A stretch of 64,000 nucleotides of DNA. It comes from Minisyncoccota bacterium (GTDB taxonomy: Bacteria > Patescibacteriota > Minisyncoccia > Phycocordibacterales > Phycocordibacteraceae). The translations under genes and the position numbers were made by a program. The notes below the pieces were generated by a model. It saw nothing but the letters and a program-made list of their open reading frames with translations. It was not told the DNA's origin and made no database searches. How positions within the stretch are numbered: position 1 is the first letter of the stretch; every line of letters starts with the position of its first letter. The stretch spans positions 25,030-89,029 of the forward strand of contig JALHOO010000002.1 in the NCBI GenBank assembly GCA_022842945.1. Reading direction: 5' to 3'. Below are positions 1 through 30,358 of the stretch, piece by piece.

Positions 1-337
1 TTCCTGTTGACGCACGGGTGTAGGTTAGGGTTGCGAGCGCCGCATTAAGCGCAGACACTGCACCACTCAGGCTTACTGACCCTGAACCGTTTCCACTCAT
101 CGTTACCCCATCAACACTAGAGAGACTCATCGTACCGGATGTAGTACGCAGCTTAACTGGGGTTGTAGACGCTGCTGGTCCCACAATCTGAAAACCACTA
201 ATAGAAGTAGCAACGTTTGGCGTTGTGGTGGCGTTGCTGCCCGCCGTAAGCGAGAGCGCAGCATGGACAGAATCGCCGAAAGAGAATGCGGCAACGCAGA
301 CCATGAATGTAAATGTGAGACCCCGGACCAACTTCAT
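1..337 (-). CDS. N-terminal part of a secreted Ser/Thr/Gly-rich repeat protein (signal peptide MKLVRGLTFTFMVCVAAFSFGDSVHA); ORF runs off the window edge
   Basis: Manual translation of the minus strand from ATG (complement 335-337). Hydrophobic signal peptide. No stop before coordinate 1. Confidence 0.4.
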   Translation of the reverse strand, partial: MKLVRGLTFTFMVCVAAFSFGDSVHAALSLTAGSNATTTPNVATSISGFQIVGPAASTTPVKLRTTSGTMSLSSVDGVTMSGNGSGSVSLSGAVSALNAALATLTYTRASTG

Positions 338-402
338 ACGTGAAGTATAGCAATGCCGTGAGCATTCGACATAGGGCACTTTGGGATAGAATCTTCTGCC
401 GA

Positions 403-431
403 ATAGTGAAAGCCCGGCATAAACCGGGCTT
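403..431 (-). terminator. GC-rich hairpin GTGAAAGCCCGG-CATAAA-CCGGGCTTTCAC downstream of the MBL/rhodanese/ArsR operon
   Basis: Perfect 12-bp stem seen in sequence. Weak U-tract. Confidence 0.4.
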
Positions 432-528
432 TCACGTACGTGTTGCTCTGGTAGGACAGGATTGGCACCAGGTTAGAGAATGGATTGGCCTGTTTTAGTG
501 CACTGACGTAACCAAGTTACGCGCAAGT

Positions 529-1449
529 CTACATTTTGCTCTTTGAAAAGACGCTATTGACCGGAATCTTGAGAAACTCCGCTCCGGTTTCCTGGTCCTT
601 AGGGATGTGTCCCGCTCGCATATTTACCTGAAGTGACGGGATGATGAGGCGAGGCATACCGAGTGTCTCATCGCGCTTCTTTCGAAGACTAGCGAAAGCT
701 TGTAAAGTTGTGTCTTTATTCAAGTGTACATTTGTACGCTTCTGCTCCCCAACAGTTGTCTCAAACAAGTAGTCTGTACGTCCTTCCGGTAGGTAGTCGT
801 GGCACATGAACATGCGCATAGATTCCGGTAGCGTGAACAACTTTTGTGCTGACGCGTGCATATCCTCTGCGCTCCCGCCCGGGAAATCAACCCGAGCAGT
901 GCCGTAGTCAGGCATGAAGAGAGTATCTCCTGCAAACACCGCATCCCCCACCACATACGTAATGTCTGCGGGTGTGTGACCCGGTGTCGCAATAACCAGG
1001 ACTGGAATATCGCCGATTGAAAACTCGTCCCCGTCCTTAAAGAGTCGGTCAAACTGACTACCGTCTCTCTCAAACTCTGTACCCTCGTTGAATACTTTGC
1101 CGAATGTTTCCTGCACATCGAGAATCTTCTCACTTATTGCAATCTTTCCCCCGAGCCGTTCTTGTATATACGGCGCAGCAGACAAATGGTCCGCATGTAC
1201 ATGTGTCTCAAGGATCCATTCAACATGATATGCGTTCTCTTCAATATGCTTTATTAACTGGTCTGCACTCTTACACGAGATAGTGGCGCTCTCTGGTTCG
1301 TAGTCGAGAACACTATCAATAACTGCGCACCTCTTTGATGCATCGTCCGCAACTACGTAGCTAATAGTGTTCGTTGCAGGGTCGAAGAACCCCTTAACGG
1401 AGGGGTGGTAGTTAAGCAGTGCTTCATAGTTAGACATGGCTCTATGCAA
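529..1449 (-). CDS. MBL-fold metallo-hydrolase, ETHE1/Blh-like persulfide dioxygenase candidate
   Basis: THVHADH metal-binding motif and glyoxalase-II-like fold. Operon context with rhodanese and an ArsR-type regulator. Confidence 0.7.
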   Translation of the reverse strand: MHRAMSNYEALLNYHPSVKGFFDPATNTISYVVADDASKRCAVIDSVLDYEPESATISCKSADQLIKHIEENAYHVEWILETHVHADHLSAAPYIQERLGGKIAISEKILDVQETFGKVFNEGTEFERDGSQFDRLFKDGDEFSIGDIPVLVIATPGHTPADITYVVGDAVFAGDTLFMPDYGTARVDFPGGSAEDMHASAQKLFTLPESMRMFMCHDYLPEGRTDYLFETTVGEQKRTNVHLNKDTTLQAFASLRKKRDETLGMPRLIIPSLQVNMRAGHIPKDQETGAEFLKIPVNSVFSKSKM

Positions 1450-1974
1450 TTACGCTCTATTCCATGGCATCTTAGCCAATAGCATGGTCATTCCGCACCA
1501 GCCAGTAAGTCCAGCTACAAGGAGTCCAACGCCCGCGACACCTGAAAGCACAAACCACAGAGGCGACACCATGAGTCCAAGAATATGTGCGATGACGATG
1601 AGTACACCGGCTGCAATAAACGTCTGCCGCATGAGCGATAGGCGCAACGAGATCTTGGCCGTGCCATACCCGGCTTCTTCCCAGGACAAGATTCCTCCTT
1701 CCACATTTACTAGCTCAGCCTTTATCCCAAGCGCAACTAGCTTCTCCATCGCCGCAACACCTCTACGACCGGAACGGCAATGCACGTAAATAGTTTTCTT
1801 GTCTTTAAACTCCTGCACATGGCGCTCGATATCATCAAGCGGAACGGAACGGACGCCACTGATGTGCTTTTCTTTATATTCAGCAGGCGTACAAACATTG
1901 ATGAAATCAACCGAGGAGTTACTCTTCTCTGCCTCTATTACTTCCTTGAACGACGAAACGGATATGTGCTTCAT
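1450..1974 (-). CDS. Membrane-anchored rhodanese (YgaP-like: rhodanese domain + C-terminal DUF2892 two-helix membrane anchor)
   Basis: Catalytic loop CRSGRRG. Hydrophobic C-terminal ~60 aa. 1-nt junction with the upstream MBL gene. Confidence 0.75.
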   Translation of the reverse strand: MKHISVSSFKEVIEAEKSNSSVDFINVCTPAEYKEKHISGVRSVPLDDIERHVQEFKDKKTIYVHCRSGRRGVAAMEKLVALGIKAELVNVEGGILSWEEAGYGTAKISLRLSLMRQTFIAAGVLIVIAHILGLMVSPLWFVLSGVAGVGLLVAGLTGWCGMTMLLAKMPWNRA

Positions 1975-2234
1975 TTTTGTTTGATTAGAACGAGTACCCT
2001 TCGCGCAAGGTCTGTATACTCTGGAGAAACGTTTTTATAATACACATGCCGGCCGCTTTCCCGCGTCTGCACGATGCCAGCATCCCGAAGCACCGCAAGA
2101 TGCTGAGACAACGCACTCTGGCTCAACGCACATTTTCGTAAGAGCTCACTTACCGTTACTTCCTTTGCAAGGCAAGCAATAAGCTGTACACGCTGAGAGT
2201 TGCCGAGCGCCCTGCATAGATCCTTGAGTTCCAT
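1971..2234 (-). CDS. ArsR/SmtB-family HTH repressor (BigR/YgaV-like sulfide-responsive type)
   Basis: 87 aa with a winged-HTH signature (SQSALSQHLAVLRDAGIV). Cys residues in alpha1/alpha2. 4-nt overlap with the rhodanese gene. Confidence 0.7.
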   Translation of the reverse strand: MELKDLCRALGNSQRVQLIACLAKEVTVSELLRKCALSQSALSQHLAVLRDAGIVQTRESGRHVYYKNVSPEYTDLARRVLVLIKQK

Positions 2235-2237
2235 ACC

Positions 2238-2263
2238 ATTATATTAGTATTTACTAATATAAT
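2238..2263. promoter_or_regulatory. Perfect 12-bp inverted repeat ATTATATTAGTA-TT-TACTAATATAAT, candidate ArsR-type operator overlapping the promoter/start of the regulator
   Basis: Seen directly, 4 nt upstream of the arsR-like start codon. Contains a TATAAT-like hexamer. Confidence 0.6.
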
Positions 2264-2353
2264 ATGCAAGCTTATCCCCGCTTGGTTCGTGCCCTACCAA
2301 CAGACCACTGATTTACCTACAAATCGTAACCAACCTAGTCTCGGCAGCAGTTT

Positions 2354-3085
2354 TCAGAGAACTCTACCTTCTTCTTCCCTTGAGCCCTCACCTCCTGCAG
2401 GACCAGTCTCTCTTGGCGAAGAGATTATAGTGTCGAACTCATCTTGTGTTATATATCGTGGCTTGTACACACTGCCGCGAGACTCAATCTGGGCAACAAA
2501 GGCTCTCAGGTGATTACGCGAGCCCTTTAAAAGATTTTGGTATACGAGTTTTATATCGTCATTGTCAGACTGAGCCAAGCGTTCTTGCAGATCTTTAATA
2601 TCGAGATCTTCGATGAGAGCACCAACCATAAGCGCATCCATTTCAGACCTTTGTCCTTTCGTAACAAGATCCGTATAGAGCTCTGCTAAATCTGAGTTAG
2701 CAAACTTCCCAGCAGTGTCGTCTAGAACAGGATCTGTAATGTTGTACTTAACAAGCACTGTTCTTACAGCCTCAGTATGGCTCTGTTCACTCTGTGAGAT
2801 GTTTTTAAAAATAGGAAATCCCCACTTTTCGTAAAGCATGGTGTACACATCGCGTGCAAGCTTCTCCTCCTCACGCATGAACAATAGACCCTCCTTCTCA
2901 TTTTCAGAAACACCTTGCACAGGCAGAGATGTAATCTGTGGACGTAAAGACAAGAAATCAGACGAGTCTGGCGTGTCGGAAACAAGTTCGCTTGTACCTC
3001 CTCGCAGCAGACTACCAACTACAACAGCACTCGTAAGACCTAGAGCGACTACTGCGACTGCAATGCCAACTGTTGTTTTTTTCAT
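2354..3085 (-). CDS. DUF2202 ferritin-like domain protein with N-terminal signal/TM anchor
   Basis: FMREEEKLARDVY-type DUF2202 motif. Hydrophobic N-terminus. Confidence 0.55.
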   Translation of the reverse strand: MKKTTVGIAVAVVALGLTSAVVVGSLLRGGTSELVSDTPDSSDFLSLRPQITSLPVQGVSENEKEGLLFMREEEKLARDVYTMLYEKWGFPIFKNISQSEQSHTEAVRTVLVKYNITDPVLDDTAGKFANSDLAELYTDLVTKGQRSEMDALMVGALIEDLDIKDLQERLAQSDNDDIKLVYQNLLKGSRNHLRAFVAQIESRGSVYKPRYITQDEFDTIISSPRETGPAGGEGSREEEGRVL

Positions 3086-3133
3086 ACTCTGCAGTATACC
3101 GGAGCAAAAAGTTACAAATTGATAATCCGCTAA

Positions 3134-3163
3134 TGGGAAACGGCGCCCTAAAGCGCCGTTTCC
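3134..3163. terminator. Perfect hairpin GGGAAACGGCGC-CCTAAA-GCGCCGTTTCCC between the DUF2202 gene start and the tRNA-like element
   Basis: 12-bp GC stem. T-rich run (TAAATTTGTT) on the plus side. Likely terminates the minus-strand RNA element at 3170-3200 and/or acts bidirectionally. Confidence 0.45.
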
Positions 3164-3169
3164 CTAAAT

Positions 3170-3200
3170 TTGTTGCGGGGGCCGGAATCGAACCGGCGTC
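3170..3200 (-). ncRNA. tRNA-like 3' module (T-stem GCCGG / loop TTCGATT / CCGGC, then acceptor strand CCCCGCA + A); no canonical 5' half within 100 nt; part of a ~400-bp ORF-free block
   Basis: Minus-strand read ...GACGCCGGTTCGATTCCGGCCCCCGCAACA. The only upstream match to the acceptor strand is GCGGGG near 3485 and TGCGGGA near 3582. Confidence 0.35.
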
Positions 3201-3571
3201 TGGAGGTTCTTTTACACTTACTGTTTCCAGCAAGAATGGACTATCCCATGATCCTGAACCAGGACCCTCCCATTATAGTCTCTGAACCTTTCCCGAATTA
3301 CTTCGAGACTTGGCTGCTGATTGCCGAATCTCCCTGTTTTTCGCGCATTCACGCTCATCCTTTCGGATCACGTTGTAGCACAAGGAGCTCTAACGGTATT
3401 CCAGCAATTTAGAGAGTTTTTCCACTACCCGTTACCGGATAGGGTCACGTTGTTCACATGAGCCTCCCGAGGTACCTCTCCTCTACCCCGCTATGCATTT
3501 CTTCACACAAGCGCACGAGCGCTATGTCCATAGAATACGCCACATCGCGTCTTTTGCAAGTCCTCTAGAAT

Positions 3572-4165
3572 CTAAATCTCCCCATGCTCCCGCATAACAA
3601 CTTCGTACATCGCAATAGTGCGGTGCGCCATATGTTCTGAAAGCTGGAACGCCTGTCCGCTATGCGCTATCTCGTTGCGCACTTTATGTGCGTCCCACGC
3701 ATGCTGGAGCGAACGGAACCTGCTGGGATCAACTGCCTTCAGTTTCTCCCCTACTGAGTTTCCTGGATAGCCCAACTGGCTCAACAAGTCGTCGAGCATG
3801 ATGTCGGCCTCGATAATAGCCTGGCGCCAATCACTCTCATGCGGACGCTCAACCAACTCTCGAATGTGTTCCCAGCGAGAATGGTCACGCTCCGTCTCTG
3901 CATGACTTGCGTGAATAGTTGCGTATAGCGGCTCCTCTTCCTTGCGTACCTGATGGAACCTAATGGTTGCGTGTATGAAAATAGCGAGCAGCGCTATAGA
4001 AGCGATAACTGCAAGGCCGGTAACCATAAGCCAAACACTTGAGGCAAGCTGAAGAAAGTTCGCCTGCAAAGAAAACCCTCCGGGGTTCGTGAGGAGCTCG
4101 TAGAGAAGCCTAAAGAAATACTCGACGTTTAGAAAGTGAACGGTTGGTTCTGACGTAGTACCCAT
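3572..4165 (-). CDS. Membrane-anchored protein with a C-terminal all-alpha domain carrying an R-x4-H (RNEIAH) HEPN-like motif
   Basis: One strong TM helix (residues ~40-65). C-terminal motif VRNEIAHSG. 9 nt downstream of gatA on the same strand. Confidence 0.35.
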   Translation of the reverse strand: MGTTSEPTVHFLNVEYFFRLLYELLTNPGGFSLQANFLQLASSVWLMVTGLAVIASIALLAIFIHATIRFHQVRKEEEPLYATIHASHAETERDHSRWEHIRELVERPHESDWRQAIIEADIMLDDLLSQLGYPGNSVGEKLKAVDPSRFRSLQHAWDAHKVRNEIAHSGQAFQLSEHMAHRTIAMYEVVMREHGEI

Positions 4166-4173
4166 CCCTCTGA

Positions 4174-5607
4174 TTATAGCGTCTCTCCCGTCACTTCTGC
4201 GCCCATAGTGAACAATAGGTCGTCAGCACCGTGCGCAGACGTGAAATGTATACCAACCGGAAGAGAAACGCCGTCTCTCTCAACCATTCCCATAGGTACC
4301 GAGATTGCGGGCATGCCGGTGAGGTTTGCGGTAACCGTAAACACGTCTTCAAGATACATAGAAACAGGGTCGCTCTTCTCGCCAAACCTGAATGCCGGAG
4401 ACGGTGTCGTTGGAAACGCAATCACGTCACAGGACCCAAACGCTGCATCATACTCAGCACGAAGTACATCACGCGCCTTATCTGCCTTGCGGTAGTACGC
4501 ATCAATATAGCCAGACGAAAGCACGAAGGTGCCCAAAAGAATACGGCGAATGGTCTCAGACCCGAAGCCTGAAGACTTGCTCTGTACATAGTCCTCAAGG
4601 AGAGACTCTCCGCGCTCTGCTAGCCCATACCGAATACCGTCATAGCGGGCAAGGTTCGCCGAGGCTTCGGCCGGCATAATCACGTAGTACGCAGATAGCG
4701 CATAGCCACTTGTTGGGAGAGATACATCAACGAGAGTGTGGCCCTTTTCGGTAAGAGCGGCAAGAGTGCGCTCAAAGCTCTCTAGCACATCCGCATCCAA
4801 GCCCTCAACGAGAAGATGCCTCGGCACCCCGATGCGAAGAGACTTCCCAACCTCTTTCACAGGATACGTATCGTCTGTAAGCGTAGTGGCATCAAGCGGA
4901 TCATGGCCCTTCATTACGTCATACAGGATCTTTGCGTCCGCAACAGACTTCGCGAGTGGACCAGCCTGATCTAGAGACGACCCAAGCGCAATAAGACCGC
5001 TTCGTGAAATGCGCCCGTAGGTAGGCTTCATACCTACGAGTCCAGTGTGTGCTGCTGGCTGGCGAATGGATCCTCCTGTATCTGTACCAAGAGCCGCGAG
5101 CGCCGTGTGCGCGGAAGCGGCCGCACTTGAACCTCCGGAAGAACCTCCCGGAACACGCGTGACATCTACAGGGTTCTTTGTCGGGCCGTATGCCGAGTGC
5201 TCGGTTGACGAACCCATAGCGAACTCGTCCATGTTGGTGCGTCCTACAAACAGCACTCCCGCTTCTTTCAGTTTCTTCGTAACCGTAGAGTCGTACGTTG
5301 CGGTGTAGTTCGCAAGCATCTTGCTGGCCGCGCTCGCCACATGTCCTTCTATAAGAATGTTGTCCTTCATCGCAAGCGGAATACCGCACAAGAGAGACGC
5401 ATTCTCCCCTTCCGCATCAATGCGTGCCTGAGCTCGCGCAATAGCATCAGCATCTGCAGGAAAGAGCTCAAGGTAAGCGTTCAGCTCAGGGTTTCGCCGT
5501 GCAGCTTCAGCACTACACGCGTCCCACAACTCCTGTACAGAAAAAGTCTTCGACCGCAGTCCTTTTGCGGCCTCAACAATAGTGAGCTCGTTGAGTGGTT
5601 TAGTCAT
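4174..5607 (-). CDS. gatA: Glu-tRNA(Gln)/Asp-tRNA(Asn) amidotransferase subunit A
   Basis: Amidase signature family, 477 aa from the internal Met (MTKPLNELTIVEAAKG). The 38-aa upstream extension in the ORF track is an Arg-rich overlap with gatC, so the start was moved to 5607. Confidence 0.85.
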   Translation of the reverse strand: MTKPLNELTIVEAAKGLRSKTFSVQELWDACSAEAARRNPELNAYLELFPADADAIARAQARIDAEGENASLLCGIPLAMKDNILIEGHVASAASKMLANYTATYDSTVTKKLKEAGVLFVGRTNMDEFAMGSSTEHSAYGPTKNPVDVTRVPGGSSGGSSAAASAHTALAALGTDTGGSIRQPAAHTGLVGMKPTYGRISRSGLIALGSSLDQAGPLAKSVADAKILYDVMKGHDPLDATTLTDDTYPVKEVGKSLRIGVPRHLLVEGLDADVLESFERTLAALTEKGHTLVDVSLPTSGYALSAYYVIMPAEASANLARYDGIRYGLAERGESLLEDYVQSKSSGFGSETIRRILLGTFVLSSGYIDAYYRKADKARDVLRAEYDAAFGSCDVIAFPTTPSPAFRFGEKSDPVSMYLEDVFTVTANLTGMPAISVPMGMVERDGVSLPVGIHFTSAHGADDLLFTMGAEVTGETL

Positions 5608-5902
5608 GGCTGATGATCTGCTTAACGGACAGCGAGTCTCCGCTCTTCTCTGGGAACTGCGCAACAATCTTCTCGGTCCAGGTACCCGATGCATACGGCT
5701 CCGTGTCTTCCCGCAATACATTACGCACTTCGCTCTGTACGCGTCCTGATTCAGGAAGCGTTAGCTCGTCGAGCTTGCCCACATACGCAAGAATGCTATC
5801 AAATTCAGTCGCAAAGCGTGCCAGGTCCGCTTCAGGGACCGTAACGCGAGCAAGACTCGCTAGGCGAGCAACATCTTCCGCTGAGGCTTTTGCAGTACTC
5901 AT
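5600..5902 (-). CDS. gatC: Glu-tRNA(Gln) amidotransferase subunit C
   Basis: 100 aa, GatC-like. 8-nt overlap with the gatA start. Confidence 0.75.
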   Translation of the reverse strand: MSTAKASAEDVARLASLARVTVPEADLARFATEFDSILAYVGKLDELTLPESGRVQSEVRNVLREDTEPYASGTWTEKIVAQFPEKSGDSLSVKQIISHD

Positions 5903-24597: not shown

Positions 24598-24633
24598 ACC
24601 TCTATGAGAACATGGTCGAGGAGATTGCACCAG

Positions 24634-26850
24634 ATGTCCCCTTTGATACAGGGACGTATACTGAGAGACATGAAGCCTACGGACGTGGTATCACAGCACT
24701 TCACCCGATTGAAGCCCGACCAGAAGAAAGCACTCGAGAAACTGGGTATTCGCACCATTCTCGACCTTCTCTACCACTTCCCTGCGCGATACGAAGCAGG
24801 AGGTCCCACCGGCACCATAGGAAGTGCCACGGCCGGGAGCGAGGTAACGCTGTACGGCACCATACGTAAGCCTGAGGCGAAGAAGGCATGGAAGTCGAAG
24901 CGTCCTATGGGAGAAGCGTGGCTTGAGGACGCGTCAGGACGCATGAAACTGCGGTGGTTCTCTCAGCCCTATATTGCAAAGTCTCTAACCGACGGCATGG
25001 TGGTGAAAGCAAGCGGAAAGATTGCTGGAACAGGAGACAAAATATATCTCGCAAACCCTGAGATAGATCGTTCAGTCGTGAACCCAGAAGACATACACGA
25101 CAGCCTCTTCTCGGCCGTGGACGAGCTTGGCACCACAATTCTCGAGGACACGCTCTACGCCATATACCCCGAATCTAAGGGTGTCTCGTCACTCTGGTTC
25201 CTGCACGCACTGAAGCGTGTGTTTGAAGCCGGCGTACACGAACACCTTGTAGACCCTTTACCTAAAGACATGCTCGAGCGGTACAACCTCCCCACCCTCG
25301 GCACCGCACTCATATGGATGCATGCGCCAAGAAAGCTTCCGGACGCTCAATCTGCAAAGAAGCGTTTCGCCTTCCAAGAAGTGCTCGCTATTCAGCTCAC
25401 CACACAGCGTCGCCGACTTGAAGCAACGAAAGAACGTGCGCTGCCGGTACACGCAGACCGCACATCGCTTCAAGCATTCATGGACTCCTTTCCGTTTCCA
25501 CCAACCGAGGCCCAAGCCCGCTCTATTGAGAGCATCGTAGCGGACTTCGAGAAGCCACATCCTATGAGAAGACTTCTTGAAGGAGACGTGGGTAGCGGAA
25601 AGACGGCGGTAGCGGCAGCAACGGCGTACATGGTTGCGACATCGCGTCCTCCGGGAAGAGTGGCGGGTACCCTCCAGGTTGCGTACATGTGCCCTACCGA
25701 GATTCTTGCGAAGCAACACTTCTCAACCTTCGTCTCGTACTTCAAGGAACACCCCATTCCCATTGGCCTCATAACGGGCAACGAATGCAGGAAGTTCCCC
25801 TCTAAAGTTTCGTACGAGGAGTCTGCGAAGGTGTCTCGTGCGCAGTTTGCGAAGTGGGTAGCCAATGGCGAGATTCCTATTGTTATAGGTACGCACGCGC
25901 TCGTATACAAGTCGCTGAAGTTTCAGAACCTCGCATACGCCATTATCGACGAGCAGCACCGCTTCGGGAAAGCGCACCGCCAAAAGCTCACGAAGAAGGA
26001 TGGTTCTCTGTCTCCGCACCTTCTTTCTATGACAGCGACACCTATTCCCCGCACGCTCGCCCTCTCTATATATGGAGACCTTGATTTATCTCTGCTCGAT
26101 CAGATGCCTCTTGGAAGAAAGCCCATTATTTCTGAAGTGCTCGGCCCCGAGAAGCGAGAAAAGGCCTATGAGCGCGTACGCTCGGAACTCGCACTCGGAC
26201 ACCAGGCGTATGTTATCTGTCCCCGCATAGACGAGCCGGACCCGCAGAAGGAGTTCGCAGTGCAAGCGAAGTCTGTTAAGGCTGAGGCAGAGAGACTCAA
26301 ATTGAACGTGTTCCCGGACGCTGAGATAGACATCCTACACAGCAAAATGACGCCGAAGGATAAGGAAGCGGTTATGAAACGATTCGAGAACGGCGAGGTA
26401 CAGATTCTCGTAGCGACGTCCGTTGTTGAGGTTGGTGTGAACGTGCCCAACGCTACTGTTATCCTCATTGAAGGCGCAGAGCGCTTTGGTCTCGCCCAGC
26501 TACATCAGTTACGCGGACGCGTTATTCGCTCAAGCAACCAAGCGTACTGCTTCGCACTTCCAAACTCCTACGGACCCGCCACCAAAGAACGGTTGAAAGC
26601 ACTCATAACCGCGAAGAACGGCTTTGAGCTCGCTGAGTACGATCTCGCGCTTCGAGGAGCCGGAGAGCTCTATGGCGCACGCCAGTGGGGCGTGTCGGAC
26701 ATGGCTATGGAGGCACTCAAGAACATCAAGATGGTTGAGGCAGCGAGAACTGAAGCACAGGACCTTATTAAGAAAGACCCGGAATTGAAGAAGCACCCCC
26801 TTCTTGCAGAGCTCGCCAAGGAAGCAGACGAAGAGGTGCATCCTGAATAA
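24634..26850 (+). CDS. recG: ATP-dependent DNA helicase RecG
   Basis: Wedge domain plus DEQH helicase core (DVGSGKTAVAA, DEQHRFG). ~738 aa. The exact start is uncertain (alternatives at 24604 or 24670). Confidence 0.85.
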   Translation: MSPLIQGRILRDMKPTDVVSQHFTRLKPDQKKALEKLGIRTILDLLYHFPARYEAGGPTGTIGSATAGSEVTLYGTIRKPEAKKAWKSKRPMGEAWLEDASGRMKLRWFSQPYIAKSLTDGMVVKASGKIAGTGDKIYLANPEIDRSVVNPEDIHDSLFSAVDELGTTILEDTLYAIYPESKGVSSLWFLHALKRVFEAGVHEHLVDPLPKDMLERYNLPTLGTALIWMHAPRKLPDAQSAKKRFAFQEVLAIQLTTQRRRLEATKERALPVHADRTSLQAFMDSFPFPPTEAQARSIESIVADFEKPHPMRRLLEGDVGSGKTAVAAATAYMVATSRPPGRVAGTLQVAYMCPTEILAKQHFSTFVSYFKEHPIPIGLITGNECRKFPSKVSYEESAKVSRAQFAKWVANGEIPIVIGTHALVYKSLKFQNLAYAIIDEQHRFGKAHRQKLTKKDGSLSPHLLSMTATPIPRTLALSIYGDLDLSLLDQMPLGRKPIISEVLGPEKREKAYERVRSELALGHQAYVICPRIDEPDPQKEFAVQAKSVKAEAERLKLNVFPDAEIDILHSKMTPKDKEAVMKRFENGEVQILVATSVVEVGVNVPNATVILIEGAERFGLAQLHQLRGRVIRSSNQAYCFALPNSYGPATKERLKALITAKNGFELAEYDLALRGAGELYGARQWGVSDMAMEALKNIKMVEAARTEAQDLIKKDPELKKHPLLAELAKEADEEVHPE

Positions 26851-26897: not shown

Positions 26898-26974
26898 GCA
26901 CCCTTAGCTCAGTTGGTTAGAGCACCTAGCTTATACCTAGGCGGTCCTTGGTTCGAGTCCAAGAGGGTGCACCA
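26898..26974 (+). tRNA. tRNA with anticodon loop CTTATAC (anticodon UAU), a candidate tRNA-Ile2(UAU) reading AUA
   Basis: Hand-folded cloverleaf: acceptor GCACCCT/AGGGTGC (7/7 Watson-Crick), D-stem GCTC/GAGC, anticodon stem CCTAG/CTAGG, T-arm CTTGG-TTCGAGT-CCAAG, encoded CCA. Confidence 0.7.
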
Positions 26975-27319: not shown

Positions 27320-27324
27320 ACGAA

Positions 27325-27352
27325 GAACGGCGACTCCTCTCGGAGTCGCCGT
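27325..27352. terminator. Bidirectional hairpin AACGGCGACTCC-TCTC-GGAGTCGCCGTT between the small gene and the ftsH 3' end
   Basis: 12-bp stem. TTCCTTTTG follows on the plus strand. Confidence 0.6.
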
Positions 27353-27368
27353 TTTCCTTTTGCGTGCC

Positions 27369-29300
27369 CTAGATCGACACGTCTTCCTCTTCCTTCTTCT
27401 TTGGTGTAATGCCGTTTGCAATAAGGATAGTTTCAAACTCCTCACGCTCAAGCGTCTCCACCTCAGTAAGACGGTCTGCAATCGCGTCCAGTGCCTTGCG
27501 GTTCTCTTCGAGCACCTGGCGTGCGCGAGTCTTGCCTTCGTCTATGATGCGGGCAACTTCTGCATCAATCTTTGCCGCTATATCCTGCGAGTATGTAGCG
27601 TCGCCATATGCACGGTCTCCCGCGTACGCAACAGGCCCGAGTACGTCACTCATGCCGTAACGAGACACCATGTCGCGCGCGAGGGCTGCGATAACCGCAA
27701 GATCGTTTGAGGGGCCCGTTGTAAGGTCGCCGTAAATCATCTCCTCTGCTACGTATCCGCCAAGCGTAGTAGCGATGTCGTCGAGGAAGGTCTTCCGGGA
27801 GTGCATGCGCTTGTCGTCAAACGGAAGCTTGAGGGTGTAGCCTGCAGCGCGTCCGCGACTGATAATCGAGATCTTGTGAATCGGGTCTGAGTGCTCAAGT
27901 ACGGAGCCCACGAGTGCGTGTCCTGCCTCGTGATACGCGGTAAGGCGCTTCTCCTTCTTTCCAAGCAGATGGCTCTTTCGTTCCGGACCGAGCATAACCT
28001 TCTCAATAGAGCGCACGAGATCGTACTGCGTAATCTCCTTGCGGTTCTCGCGGGCAGCCAAGATTGCTCCCTCGTTCATGAGCGAATAGAGCTCGGCTCC
28101 AGAGAAGCCTGGAGTGCGCTCCGCGATAACCTCAAGGTTAACGTCAGGACCAAACGGCTTCTTGCGTGCGTGCACCGTAAGAATCTCAAGACGATCTTTT
28201 CGGTCTGGGAGGTCGATAGTTACACGACGGTCGAAGCGTCCTGGGCGAAGAAGTGCCGGGTCAAGGACGTCAGGACGGTTGGTTGCCGCCATAACGATAA
28301 CCTTCTCAGTCGGATCAAATCCGTCCATCTCAACGAGGATCTGGTTAAGCGTCTGCTCGCGTTCGTCGTTCCCTCCTCCCACACCCGTACCACGCACGCG
28401 CCCAACGGCATCAATCTCGTCGATGAAGATGATGGACGGCGATGTCTTCTTCGCAAGAAGGAAGAGATCGCGTACACGTGACGCTCCCACACCCACAAAC
28501 ATCTCAACGAACTCAGAGCCTGAGATGGAGAAGAATGGTACGCCCGCTTCTCCCGCAACGGCGCGCGCAAGAAGAGTCTTTCCCGTTCCTGGTGCACCCA
28601 TAAGAAGGATTCCCTTTGGAATACGTGCACCGATATCAAGAAACTTCTTCGGGTTCTTCAAGAAGTCCACAATCTCAAGAAGCTCTTCCTTGGCTTCCTT
28701 GGCACCAGCAACGTCAGAGAAGAGTACACGCTGGGAGGTGTCCGCAGGATCAATCATGCGGGCCTTGGACTGGCCGAATGAGAATGCCTGCATGCCGGAC
28801 CCGCGCACCTGGCGCGTAAGGAACCAGAAGAGTACGCCCAGGAAGAGTATCGGGAGAAGAATAGGTGCAAGGCTCAAGAACCAATACTTGAATCCAGACT
28901 CGCTCTCAACCGTTACGTTAACGGCAGTGAGCTGTTCAGGGGTAACACCATATGCAGCGAGCGTCTCTGGAAGCGATGCCTCTGGATCTTTCATTGCCTC
29001 GCGCTCGGTGCCGTCCGCGTACGCGAGCACGAGACCGTTGCCCTCGATATGGATAGACGAGATAACTCCTGCCCTCACGTCAGCAGCAACCTGGGAAAGA
29101 GACACAGGCTCTTCCTTGTCTCCTTGGTTGGTTATAAGCGAGTAGCCACTCGTGAGGATAATAAGGATAAGGACAGTTGAGATGAGATTCGCCATGAATC
29201 CGCCACCTCCCGGGAGAAAGCCTCCCTTCCCTACCTGCTTCTTGTCTGTCTTCTTTGGGCCGGACTTCTCTGACCCGGCTGGTTTCTTTTTTGGTGCCAT
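27369..29300 (-). CDS. ftsH: ATP-dependent zinc metalloprotease FtsH
   Basis: AAA Walker [12 protein letters not shown] region, zinc motif HEAGHA. 643 aa. Confidence 0.95.
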
Positions 29301-29383: not shown

Positions 29384-29830
29384 ATGACGACACTTATAGA
29401 GAACAAAAAAGCACGCCTTAGGTTTGAGGTGCTTGAGACCTTCCAAGCAGGTCTTGAGCTCCACGGATACGAGGTTAAATCTATCCGCGCGAAGCTCGGC
29501 AGTTTTGAAGGTTCCCGCGTTATTGTGCGCGGCGGCGAAGCCTTTATTGTTGGCATGACGATACCTCCCTTCCAGATTGCGAACGCACCGAAGACCTATG
29601 ATCCGGAGCGTCCGCGCAGACTGCTTCTGAAGCGCTCCGAGATAGTCGAACTCCTCGAAGCAGAAGCGAAGAAAGGATTGACACTAGTACCATTAGAGAT
29701 GTATAATGCGGGGAGATACCTGAAGGTGCGAGTAGCTATTGTCCGCGGAAAAGGCAAAGCGGATAAGCGCGAAGATATGAAGCGCTTAGAAGCCAAGAAA
29801 GAAGCGGATAGAGCCATGCGCCAGAAATAG
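29384..29830 (+). CDS. smpB: SsrA-binding protein
   Basis: 148 aa, typical SmpB sequence (KARLRFEVLETFQAGLELHGYEVKSIR...). Confidence 0.85.
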   Translation: MTTLIENKKARLRFEVLETFQAGLELHGYEVKSIRAKLGSFEGSRVIVRGGEAFIVGMTIPPFQIANAPKTYDPERPRRLLLKRSEIVELLEAEAKKGLTLVPLEMYNAGRYLKVRVAIVRGKGKADKREDMKRLEAKKEADRAMRQK

Positions 29831-29872: not shown

Positions 29873-30280
29873 GGGGGTGACCGGCTTTGACGGTCCAGTA
29901 CTTTGAGAGACGTGCGACGCGGTGGAAGGATACTGACCACCTAAAAACGTATTCAACCAAACTTGCCAAGAACACTCTTGCAAGCGTAAAGTCGCCTTAC
30001 TTCGGTAAGTCCGATTTTGCGTTCGCTTACGCGTAAAAGCTTCGCGCTTTCGCCTAAGCGACGTTCATACCTCTAGGGTCTCGTAGCTAGGAGTATGGGC
30101 GGAATTCTCTACGAGATCGGTGCCCGCATGCCCAGGCGATGTACTTAAACAACGGGCGTAGGCAGGAACGTTTTCGCTAGCGTTCATACGCTTCTGCTGA
30201 AATCTAAACGTTAGCTACGCGTCGTAGACTCGCTCTTAAAGCTGGATTCGGACGGGAGTTCAACTCTCCCCACCTCCACC
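29873..30280 (+). ncRNA. ssrA: tmRNA (ssrA), one-piece, ~408 nt
   Basis: 5' GGGGGUGACCGGCUUUGACGG. 3' GGACGGGAGUUCAACUCUCCC-CACCUCC-A-CC. G3:U70 wobble in the acceptor. Candidate tag ORF ends ...GKSDFAFAYA* with TAA at 30033-30035. Immediately follows smpB. Confidence 0.85.
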
Positions 30281-30358
30281 GATATAGAACTATGTAGAAA
30301 TACATGGAACAGTAGAAAACCGCCCTGAGGCGGTTTTCTACTCGATACACAGTACTGA

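Follow-up and report, generated by a model that had tools for sequence, protein, structure and literature searches.

Reading AUA as isoleucine without also reading AUG as isoleucine is a classic problem of the genetic code, for which TilS and lysidine are the textbook bacterial solution.

A smaller number of bacteria carry a tRNA-Ile with an encoded UAU anticodon. This tRNA has been reported in nine species that lack tilS, belonging to three clades, and also in some species that possess the gene, none of them Patescibacteria; Lactobacillus casei, Cyanothece and Ferrimonas have both together (PMC3575796). In Mycoplasma mobile, where tilS has been lost, U34 was found to be unmodified by mass spectrometry, IleRS carries Arg865 and the ribosome excludes AUG (Taniguchi et al. 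2013, PMC3575796). U34 was also unmodified by mass spectrometry in a Bacillus subtilis suppressor, whose binding to AUA greatly exceeds that to AUG (AUA >>> AUG; PMC3919564). Surveys of tRNA genes list tRNA-Ile(UAU) in 19 species of tRNADB-CE, none of them Patescibacteria (PMC4013482), and tRNA-Ile3(UAU) in 17 bacterial genomes analyzed with tRNAscan-SE 2.0, again none of Patescibacteria (PMC8450103), and as late as 2026 a preprint describes UAU tRNAs as "rare cases". Our full-text search, which covered few subscription journals, found no literature linking lysidine, TilS (including TIGR02432) or isoleucine anticodons to Patescibacteria, CPR or Saccharibacteria; the single paper retrieved for lysidine and Saccharibacteria was irrelevant.

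The stretch of 64 kb analyzed here (the window) contains a tRNA-Ile(UAU) gene that belongs to a family present in more than a hundred ultra-small Patescibacteria species. It resembles the M. mobile case, as a bacterial tRNA with an encoded UAU, a reduced genome and a tRNA-Ile2-type body, by which AUA is expected to be read without lysidine. However, M. mobile is a species-level case in a tilS-positive phylum, with traits established by experiment, whereas the family described here is radiation-wide and known from sequence; in addition, the family has a C32/C38 anticodon loop and often a C1-G72 pair. The clade-level swap of tRNA-Ile2(CAU) for a UAU tRNA that we propose has its likeness in Bifidobacterium and Neorickettsia, but those clades have a eukaryote-type IleRS (PMC3575796). 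The B. subtilis suppressor is comparable in that an unmodified UAU anticodon sustains normal growth, although it arose in the laboratory by mutation of the major tRNA-Ile1 body and is not a natural conserved gene. Finally, the canonical tRNA-Ile2(CAU)/TilS system has the AUA codon and a similar tRNA body in common with our case, as the window tRNA shares with E. coli ileX the CCCUUAGCUCAG 5' region, C4-G69, C5-G68 and A73, but has U34 for C34 and C38 for A38. With U34 in place of C34, editing by TilS is neither needed nor possible in the window tRNA.

A tRNA-Ile(UAU) gene between recG and ftsH

ARAGORN called two tRNAs in the window, one of which is a tRNA-Ile with anticodon TAT (Table 1). Its coordinates match exactly those at which the initial annotation had folded by hand a cloverleaf with a 7/7 acceptor stem, a C-U-U-A-U-A-C loop and a UAU anticodon. 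Every detail of that fold proved right by ARAGORN, Rfam and the sequence, including the placement of the anticodon, where ARAGORN gives Ile/TAT at the same position. For nucleotides 26898-26971, the Rfam model RF00005 gave 70.9 bits (E = 1.8e-13), the gathering score being 29; the posterior probability is 1.00 throughout and the cloverleaf is fully paired. The acceptor stem GCACCCU/AGGGUGC is Watson-Crick paired at 7 of 7 positions, and the other stems are GCUC/GAGC (D), CCUAG/CUAGG (anticodon) and CUUGG/CCAAG (T), followed by a discriminator A and an encoded CCA. The tertiary nucleotides U8, A14, G18-G19, U33, G53-U54-U55-C56 and A58 are kept, both in the window sequence and as invariant columns of the family alignment. 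Features of tRNA-Ile isoacceptors are also found, namely A35 with U36, an A37 open to t6A, and A73.

Table 1. Positions of the features discussed in the text, numbered from the first letter of the window
Feature	Position	Strand	Remarks
Predicted initiator tRNA-fMet(CAU)	3173-3492	-	exon 1 3492-3458, ending ...CUCAU; exon 2 3208-3173
Predicted group I intron	3457-3209	-	249 nt, ends in G, directly after the anticodon; splice sites predicted
recG, upstream anchor	24604-26850	+	NCBIfam RecG models, E = 1e-208; stop 47 nt before the tRNA
tRNA-Ile(UAU) gene	26898-26974	+	74-nt body to discriminator A73 (26898-26971); encoded CCA 26972-26974
Anticodon loop C32-U33-U34-A35-U36-A37-C38	26930-26936	+	anticodon UAU = 26932-26934, from the sequence
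Terminator-like hairpin	27324-27355	+	14 pairs, then a T-run; consensus scan; between a small ORF after the tRNA and the ftsH 3' end
ftsH, downstream anchor	27369-29300	-	TIGR01241, 758 bits; tRNA on the other strand, 395 nt past its 3' end
smpB	29384-29830	+	upstream of ftsH

The gene lies between two core genes. The true start of recG is probably about 22 codons downstream of position 24604, as its homologues are 721-726 aa long. A consensus scan found no sigma-70-like promoter between recG and the tRNA, so that the two may be co-transcribed, and the terminator-like hairpin would then possibly close a transcription unit comprising recG and the tRNA. Between the tRNA and ftsH lies a small membrane ORF that has no annotation. 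The rest of the window, whose GC content is 49-56%, contains type IV pilus genes, gatA, ligA, a ribosomal-protein cluster and the genes for EF-G and EF-Tu. We also noticed a tmRNA directly after smpB (29873-30281, plus strand; Rfam 106.6 bits), on which ARAGORN is silent in the window while it calls the orthologues in two related loci (L006 and L009).

RecG homologues at 75-100% identity are assigned to the Patescibacteria group, Candidatus Paceibacterota and Parcubacteria group bacterium, which assigns the window to a CPR (Candidate Phyla Radiation) bacterium of Parcubacteria type. Close relatives include GCA_040384045.1, GCA_028286605.1, GCA_001189215.1 (C7867-008), LFCN01 (C7867-004) and CALFMK01, whose FtsH is 87% identical to that of the window. 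We fetched the syntenic loci for homologues of 93, 85, 78, 78 and 76% identity, and in every locus that spans both genes (RecG identity 93, 85, 78 and 78%) a tRNA-Ile(TAT) lies within the recG-ftsH interval. The tRNA is inverted in L006 and L009 relative to the window arrangement, and the content between recG and the tRNA differs among relatives. In the five syntenic orthologues, which were found without any pattern, the anticodon loop does not vary, and three of the stems show compensatory changes.

The family in Patescibacteria and its viral counterparts

GTDB species-representative genomes were then scanned with a pattern made from the invariant columns, in which the wobble base was set to Y. 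Results showed the tRNA family in at least 120 loci, from at least about 119 species-representative genomes of Patescibacteria, and among the matches listed the anticodon was TAT in 120 of 120 and CAT in 0 of 120. The matches listed are nearly all Patescibacteria MAGs (Nomura-, Uhr-, Kaiser-, Adler-, Taylor- and Vogelbacteria) and also include Parcubacteria C7867-004, UBA926, BroJett034 and many generic "Saccharibacteria" records; three are labelled Gammaproteobacteria and one an archaeon, which are probably mis-assigned bins. Therefore, the statement of the initial annotation that an encoded UAU is known only from a few lineages does not hold, considering the spread of this family and the fact that UAU tRNAs are common in viral contigs.

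We analyzed the stems in 62 distinct family sequences (21 pairs, 1302 stem cells). Standard pairs were present in 1302 of 1302 cells, and compensatory changes on both sides of a pair occurred at 13 of the 21 pairs, in 257 cells. The covariation score reached 0.539, compared with 0.137 after shuffling (0 of 500 shuffled sets reached 0.539) and with at most 0.094 when the partners were slid. As a pseudogene or a chance cloverleaf, the window sequence would be hard to reconcile with these results: the Rfam E value, the complete pairing, the 257 doubly changed cells and the anticodon loop, invariant in the relatives, all speak against both. In view of the covariation we regard the probability of either as negligible, and conclude that the window tRNA is a genuine gene whose structure is under selection.

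Several positions vary and others do not among the 122 family members aligned. TAT is the anticodon in the window copy and in 122 of 122 family members, which also have A73 in every case, and CCA is encoded in 30 of the 122, as it is in the window copy. The first pair of the acceptor stem is C1-G72 in 65 of 122 members and G-C in 52, the window copy having G1-C72; a C1-G72 start is unusual for a bacterial elongator tRNA. As for the anticodon loop, C32 and C38 occurred together in 0 of 45 other tRNAs of the CPR loci. The GTDB pattern had C38 fixed; therefore, independent support for a universal coupling of UAU with C38 comes from the five syntenic orthologues only.

The genomic context was counted in the 116 of the matches listed where ARAGORN calls the tRNA. 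An ftsH gene is present in 72 of these 116 loci, and in 72 of 72 the tRNA lies 3' of it, with a median distance of 128 nt to the stop codon; in 50 loci the two genes run in the same direction, and in 22 the tRNA is inverted, which is also the arrangement of the window. recG is beside the tRNA in 65 of the 116. The FtsH proteins range from 97% down to 54% identity to that of the window among the matches listed, indicating that the linkage between the tRNA and ftsH is old. In addition, 26 of the loci listed (Uhrbacteria, BroJett034, UBA926 and others) have acceptor stems starting with GGG and a different context. In three of the loci from GTDB Patescibacteria (L149, L213 and L230), a tRNA-Ser(GCT) is adjoined by a tRNA-Ser whose anticodon, ACT (loop TTACTAA), begins with A, which is very rare.

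Viruses carry comparable genes. A broad pattern combining an Ile-type D-arm with CTTATA gave at least 120 matches in viral contigs, in which 65 viral tRNA-Ile(TAT) were called; position 38 is A in 43, C in 13 and U in 9 of those among the matches listed. Phage and giant-virus tRNA(UAU) genes, abundant as they are, have the same anticodon and an Ile-type D-arm in common with the window family, but differ in their anticodon stems, have mostly A38, and lie in phage contexts or tRNA arrays. We asked, on this basis, whether the window tRNA could be a phage-derived or mobile gene, horizontally acquired and outside the core translation set, a possibility to which the abundance of the viral copies, the variable content of the recG-tRNA interval and the inversion of the tRNA in some relatives lend some weight. 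By the pattern test, however, a sequence of the CPR family was present in only 1 of 120 viral loci among the matches listed. Moreover, the core genes recG and ftsH flank the tRNA in most sampled species, no integrase or phage gene was found adjoining it in the window, and its stems covary gradually along with the host proteins. A phage origin is therefore very unlikely in our view. As to the single viral match of the CPR family that was listed (L018, IMGVR_UViG_3300020047_008110, 5172 bp), it is either a CPR fragment labelled viral or a CPR phage with a host-type tRNA.

On the contrary, vertical descent belongs to the explanation that we favor and judge, as a whole, to be probable: the tRNA family is old, vertically inherited and linked to the 3' end of ftsH in Parcubacteria/Paceibacteria, Uhrbacteria and others.

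Isoleucine identity and the meaning of AUA

We compared the window tRNA with E. coli references, of which ileX and the fMet sequence were verified against annotated E. coli genomes. The body has 55 of 74 positions identical to the tRNA-Ile2 ileX, against 50 for the elongator tRNA-Met and 48 for tRNA-Ile1, the last two relative to what we take to be the E. coli sequences. Judged by these alignments, with the tRNA-Met and tRNA-Ile1 references presumed, the window body appears closest to ileX. The identity set that Nureki and colleagues reportedly defined in 1994 for E. coli IleRS consists of C4-G69, U12-A23, C29-G41 and A38. The window tRNA keeps C4-G69 and U12-A23 and carries U29-A41 for C29-G41 and C38 for A38; pair 29-41, which is U-A here, is G-C in most family members among the matches listed. 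As C38 and U29-A41 depart from the E. coli set, we infer charging by IleRS from codon evidence and not from identity rules. No ileS was found in the examined CPR loci, which gave two class-I synthetase matches only; these were considered as ileS candidates and rejected, as their motifs, by motif reading only, look ValRS-type. In systems of the M. mobile and Bifidobacterium type, an IleRS adapted to U34 would be marked by Arg or Lys at the position of Trp905 in E. coli, or would be a eukaryote-type enzyme.

Codon usage was determined on a set of 25 curated window genes with family assignments. ATA accounts for 9.7 per 1000 codons in this set and for 15% of isoleucine codons, falling to 3.2 per 1000 in the highly expressed gene set and to 0 of the 70 isoleucine codons of EF-Tu and EF-G. 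For comparison, the frequency of ATA per 1000 codons is 4.9 in E. coli (51.8% GC) and 2.9 in G. kaustophilus (52.8% GC) (PMC12514573).

We also aligned the curated window genes to the orthologues of five relatives and recorded the residues facing each codon. Window ATA codons were aligned with Ile in 67% of cases, with Val in 16%, with Leu in 10% and with Met in 4%. The values for ATT were 78% Ile, 12% Val, 5.5% Leu and 1.5% Met, and those for ATG were 11% Ile, 2.3% Val, 9.1% Leu and 71% Met. A frequent exchange between ATA and ATG in the initial substitution run was an artefact of antisense ORFs and disappeared with the curated genes. As ATA aligns mostly with isoleucine codons and rarely with Met, AUA is, on this indirect, codon-level evidence, an ordinary but minor isoleucine codon, avoided in highly expressed genes. 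The codon-usage check suggested in the initial annotation came out in agreement with its reading.

The departures from the E. coli identity set could mean that this is not an isoleucine tRNA in practice, either because AUA has taken another meaning (Met, for instance, which it has in many mitochondria) or because another synthetase charges it, and charging by IleRS is in our case a prediction. However, window ATA codons meet ATC, ATT or ATA in 67% of aligned positions and ATG in 4%, a behavior like that of ATT and ATC and the opposite of that of ATG, and the tRNA keeps A73, C4-G69 and U12-A23. We consider a non-isoleucine reading very unlikely, indeed close to refuted, and keep to an isoleucine tRNA in what follows.

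tilS, CAU tRNAs and the reading of AUA

TilS was searched with the E. coli protein by tblastn and phmmer and with a scan for the SGGxDS PP-loop motif; neither the 64-kb window nor the CPR loci (1.05 Mb together, a sample of about 1% of each genome) gave a match. This negative result carries little weight, because only about one match would be expected by chance even with tilS in every genome. In bacteria, tilS often sits upstream of ftsH, an order of which the Omnitrophota locus L276 (see below) is an example; in the window and in most relatives this place is taken by smpB, not by tilS. That the tRNA lies 3' of ftsH here and tilS 5' of ftsH in many other bacteria may be a coincidence or have a functional meaning.

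The only CAU tRNA of the window is split by an intron and is predicted to be an initiator. A group I intron (Rfam match 3217-3448, minus strand, 67 bits) interrupts a tRNA that ARAGORN missed. Spliced as predicted, the exons fold into a clean cloverleaf of 72 nt whose anticodon is CAU and in which A1 faces A72 as a mismatch and A11 pairs with U24; it is identical to E. coli tRNA-fMet at 56 of 72 positions and to ileX at 43. By these features it would be the initiator tRNA and not tRNA-Ile2. A naive search for CAU tRNAs would consequently miss or miscount the initiator. Cyanobacteria are known to have group I introns in tRNA-fMet, and we found no report in the literature of one in a CPR tRNA-fMet. 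In the related loci, three CAU tRNAs were found, which are Met or initiator-like. One locus (L165) has the UAU tRNA about 3 kb from two CAU tRNAs, one initiator-like and the other elongator-Met-like, where the third CAU tRNA would otherwise be expected.

Metagenomes were scanned for the same tRNA body with CAT, which gave 76 loci. An archaeal-type body was present in 56 of the 76, many of them from brine samples, and 19 were bacterial-type with A38, mostly in tRNA arrays that comprise 13-24 genes and lie on large contigs of low GC; the dense arrays on such contigs suggest huge phages. The CAT version was found in the CPR recG/ftsH context in 0 of the 76 loci. As a route to a CPR TilS or a tRNA-Ile2 ancestor, the scan was abandoned, as the tilS-bearing locus that it yielded belongs to Omnitrophota and not to CPR.

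Several of these metagenome loci are of interest in themselves. The one from Candidatus Omnitrophota (L276; Ga0315294_10002472, 1-5656) has the order mnmA - larE - tRNA(CAT) - tilS (type I) - ftsH, and the anticodon arm of its tRNA(CAT), which is either a tRNA-Met or a tRNA-Ile2, is that of the CPR UAU family except for C34, with C38 included. In the arrays L279, L291, L293, L300, L303, L312 and L313, the body of the tRNA(CAT) is close to that of the CPR tRNA-Ile(UAU), but with A38. Together with L318, these are the dense array loci (13-24 tRNA genes, contigs up to 476 kb), probably of huge phages; the CAT tRNA of L318 (56% GC, 5.3-kb contig) is more divergent. Finally, the anticodon of one tRNA in L268 is CUA and would read amber, and in L303 one tRNA was called with a four-base anticodon (taaa).

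Two situations could underlie the conserved UAU tRNA. In the first, which we consider likely, it has replaced TilS and the lysidine-bearing tRNA-Ile2 in this lineage, and tilS would have been lost, a plausible loss that the initial annotation had also proposed. The replacement is suggested by the clade-wide conservation of the tRNA in very small genomes, together with the fact that a CAU counterpart was not found among the GTDB matches listed or in a CPR context in metagenomes. The loss of tilS is suggested by the known clades with conserved UAU, all of which are without tilS while coexistence is sporadic, and by the consideration that redundancy is unlikely to last across a clade that is so deep and whose genomes measure about 0.5-0.7 Mb.

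In the second situation, tilS and a tRNA-Ile2(CAU) would be encoded outside the window, and the UAU tRNA would be an auxiliary reader of AUA, as proposed for L. casei. Coexistence of tilS with UAU tRNAs is documented in some bacteria (PMC3575796), and about 98% of annotated bacterial genomes have tilS (PMC12514573), both of which favor redundancy. On the other hand, the tRNA is conserved and syntenic across a deep clade of small genomes (about 0.5-0.7 Mb) with FtsH identity down to 54%, whereas known coexistence is sporadic at the species level and the conserved-UAU clades Bifidobacterium, Neorickettsia and haemoplasmas are without tilS. A CAT sister was absent from the 120 GTDB matches listed and from the CPR context in metagenomes, and in L165 the UAU tRNA takes the expected place of a third CAU tRNA. 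Redundancy is therefore unlikely, if clearly less so than a phage origin or a non-isoleucine reading, and replacement remains our preferred interpretation.

An encoded UAU anticodon on an Ile-type body makes AUA readable without lysidine. The initial annotation had proposed lysidine-independent decoding of AUA by this tRNA, and this is borne out, in that the gene is real, UAU is encoded, the body is Ile-type and ATA is used as an isoleucine codon. According to the explanation that we judge probable, the gene encodes a minor tRNA-Ile whose unedited UAU anticodon would read AUA by a U34-A pair. The tRNA would be charged by IleRS and carry t6A at A37. By analogy with the two characterized bacterial cases, U34 is most likely unmodified. 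The present data offer no support for the modified U34 that had been proposed as a means to avoid misreading of AUG; U34 is unmodified both in M. mobile (PMC3575796) and in the suppressor of B. subtilis (PMC3919564). Misreading of AUG would be held down by the weak U-G wobble of unmodified U34 and by competition from tRNA-Met, and probably also limited by the context of the C32/C38 loop and by the ribosome. As the combination of C32 and C38 is restricted to tRNA-Ile(UAU) among the tRNAs of the CPR loci, we hypothesize that this invariant loop is part of the context that excludes AUG.

On a larger scale, the results raise the possibility, to which we give an even chance, that a large part of Patescibacteria (at least Parcubacteria/Paceibacteria and Uhrbacteria) has dispensed with TilS and lysidine, using instead an ftsH-linked tRNA-Ile(UAU) whose C32/C38 loop is co-adapted against AUG. 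The type of gene is already known; the scale of its distribution and its linkage to ftsH may be new. UAU decoding, so far regarded as exceptional and rare, may be routine in a large bacterial branch. If so, lysidine-independent decoding of AUA would be the usual state in a substantial part of bacterial diversity, and hundreds of natural sequences would be available to work out how U34 discriminates A from G.

TIGR02432 is one of the GTDB bac120 marker families. If the UAU tRNA is the sole decoder of AUA, a very large radiation would lack an essential bacteria-specific enzyme, which is a proposed antibiotic target and serves as a phylogenetic marker. Pipelines that expect a tRNA-Ile2(CAU) will flag an "incomplete" tRNA set in genomes with the UAU tRNA. 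The distribution of a sole decoder would also be relevant to the proposed ancestral status of UAU decoding (PMC3575796), and its invariant C32/C38 loop would provide a testable hypothesis for the share that the tRNA itself has in discriminating AUA from AUG.
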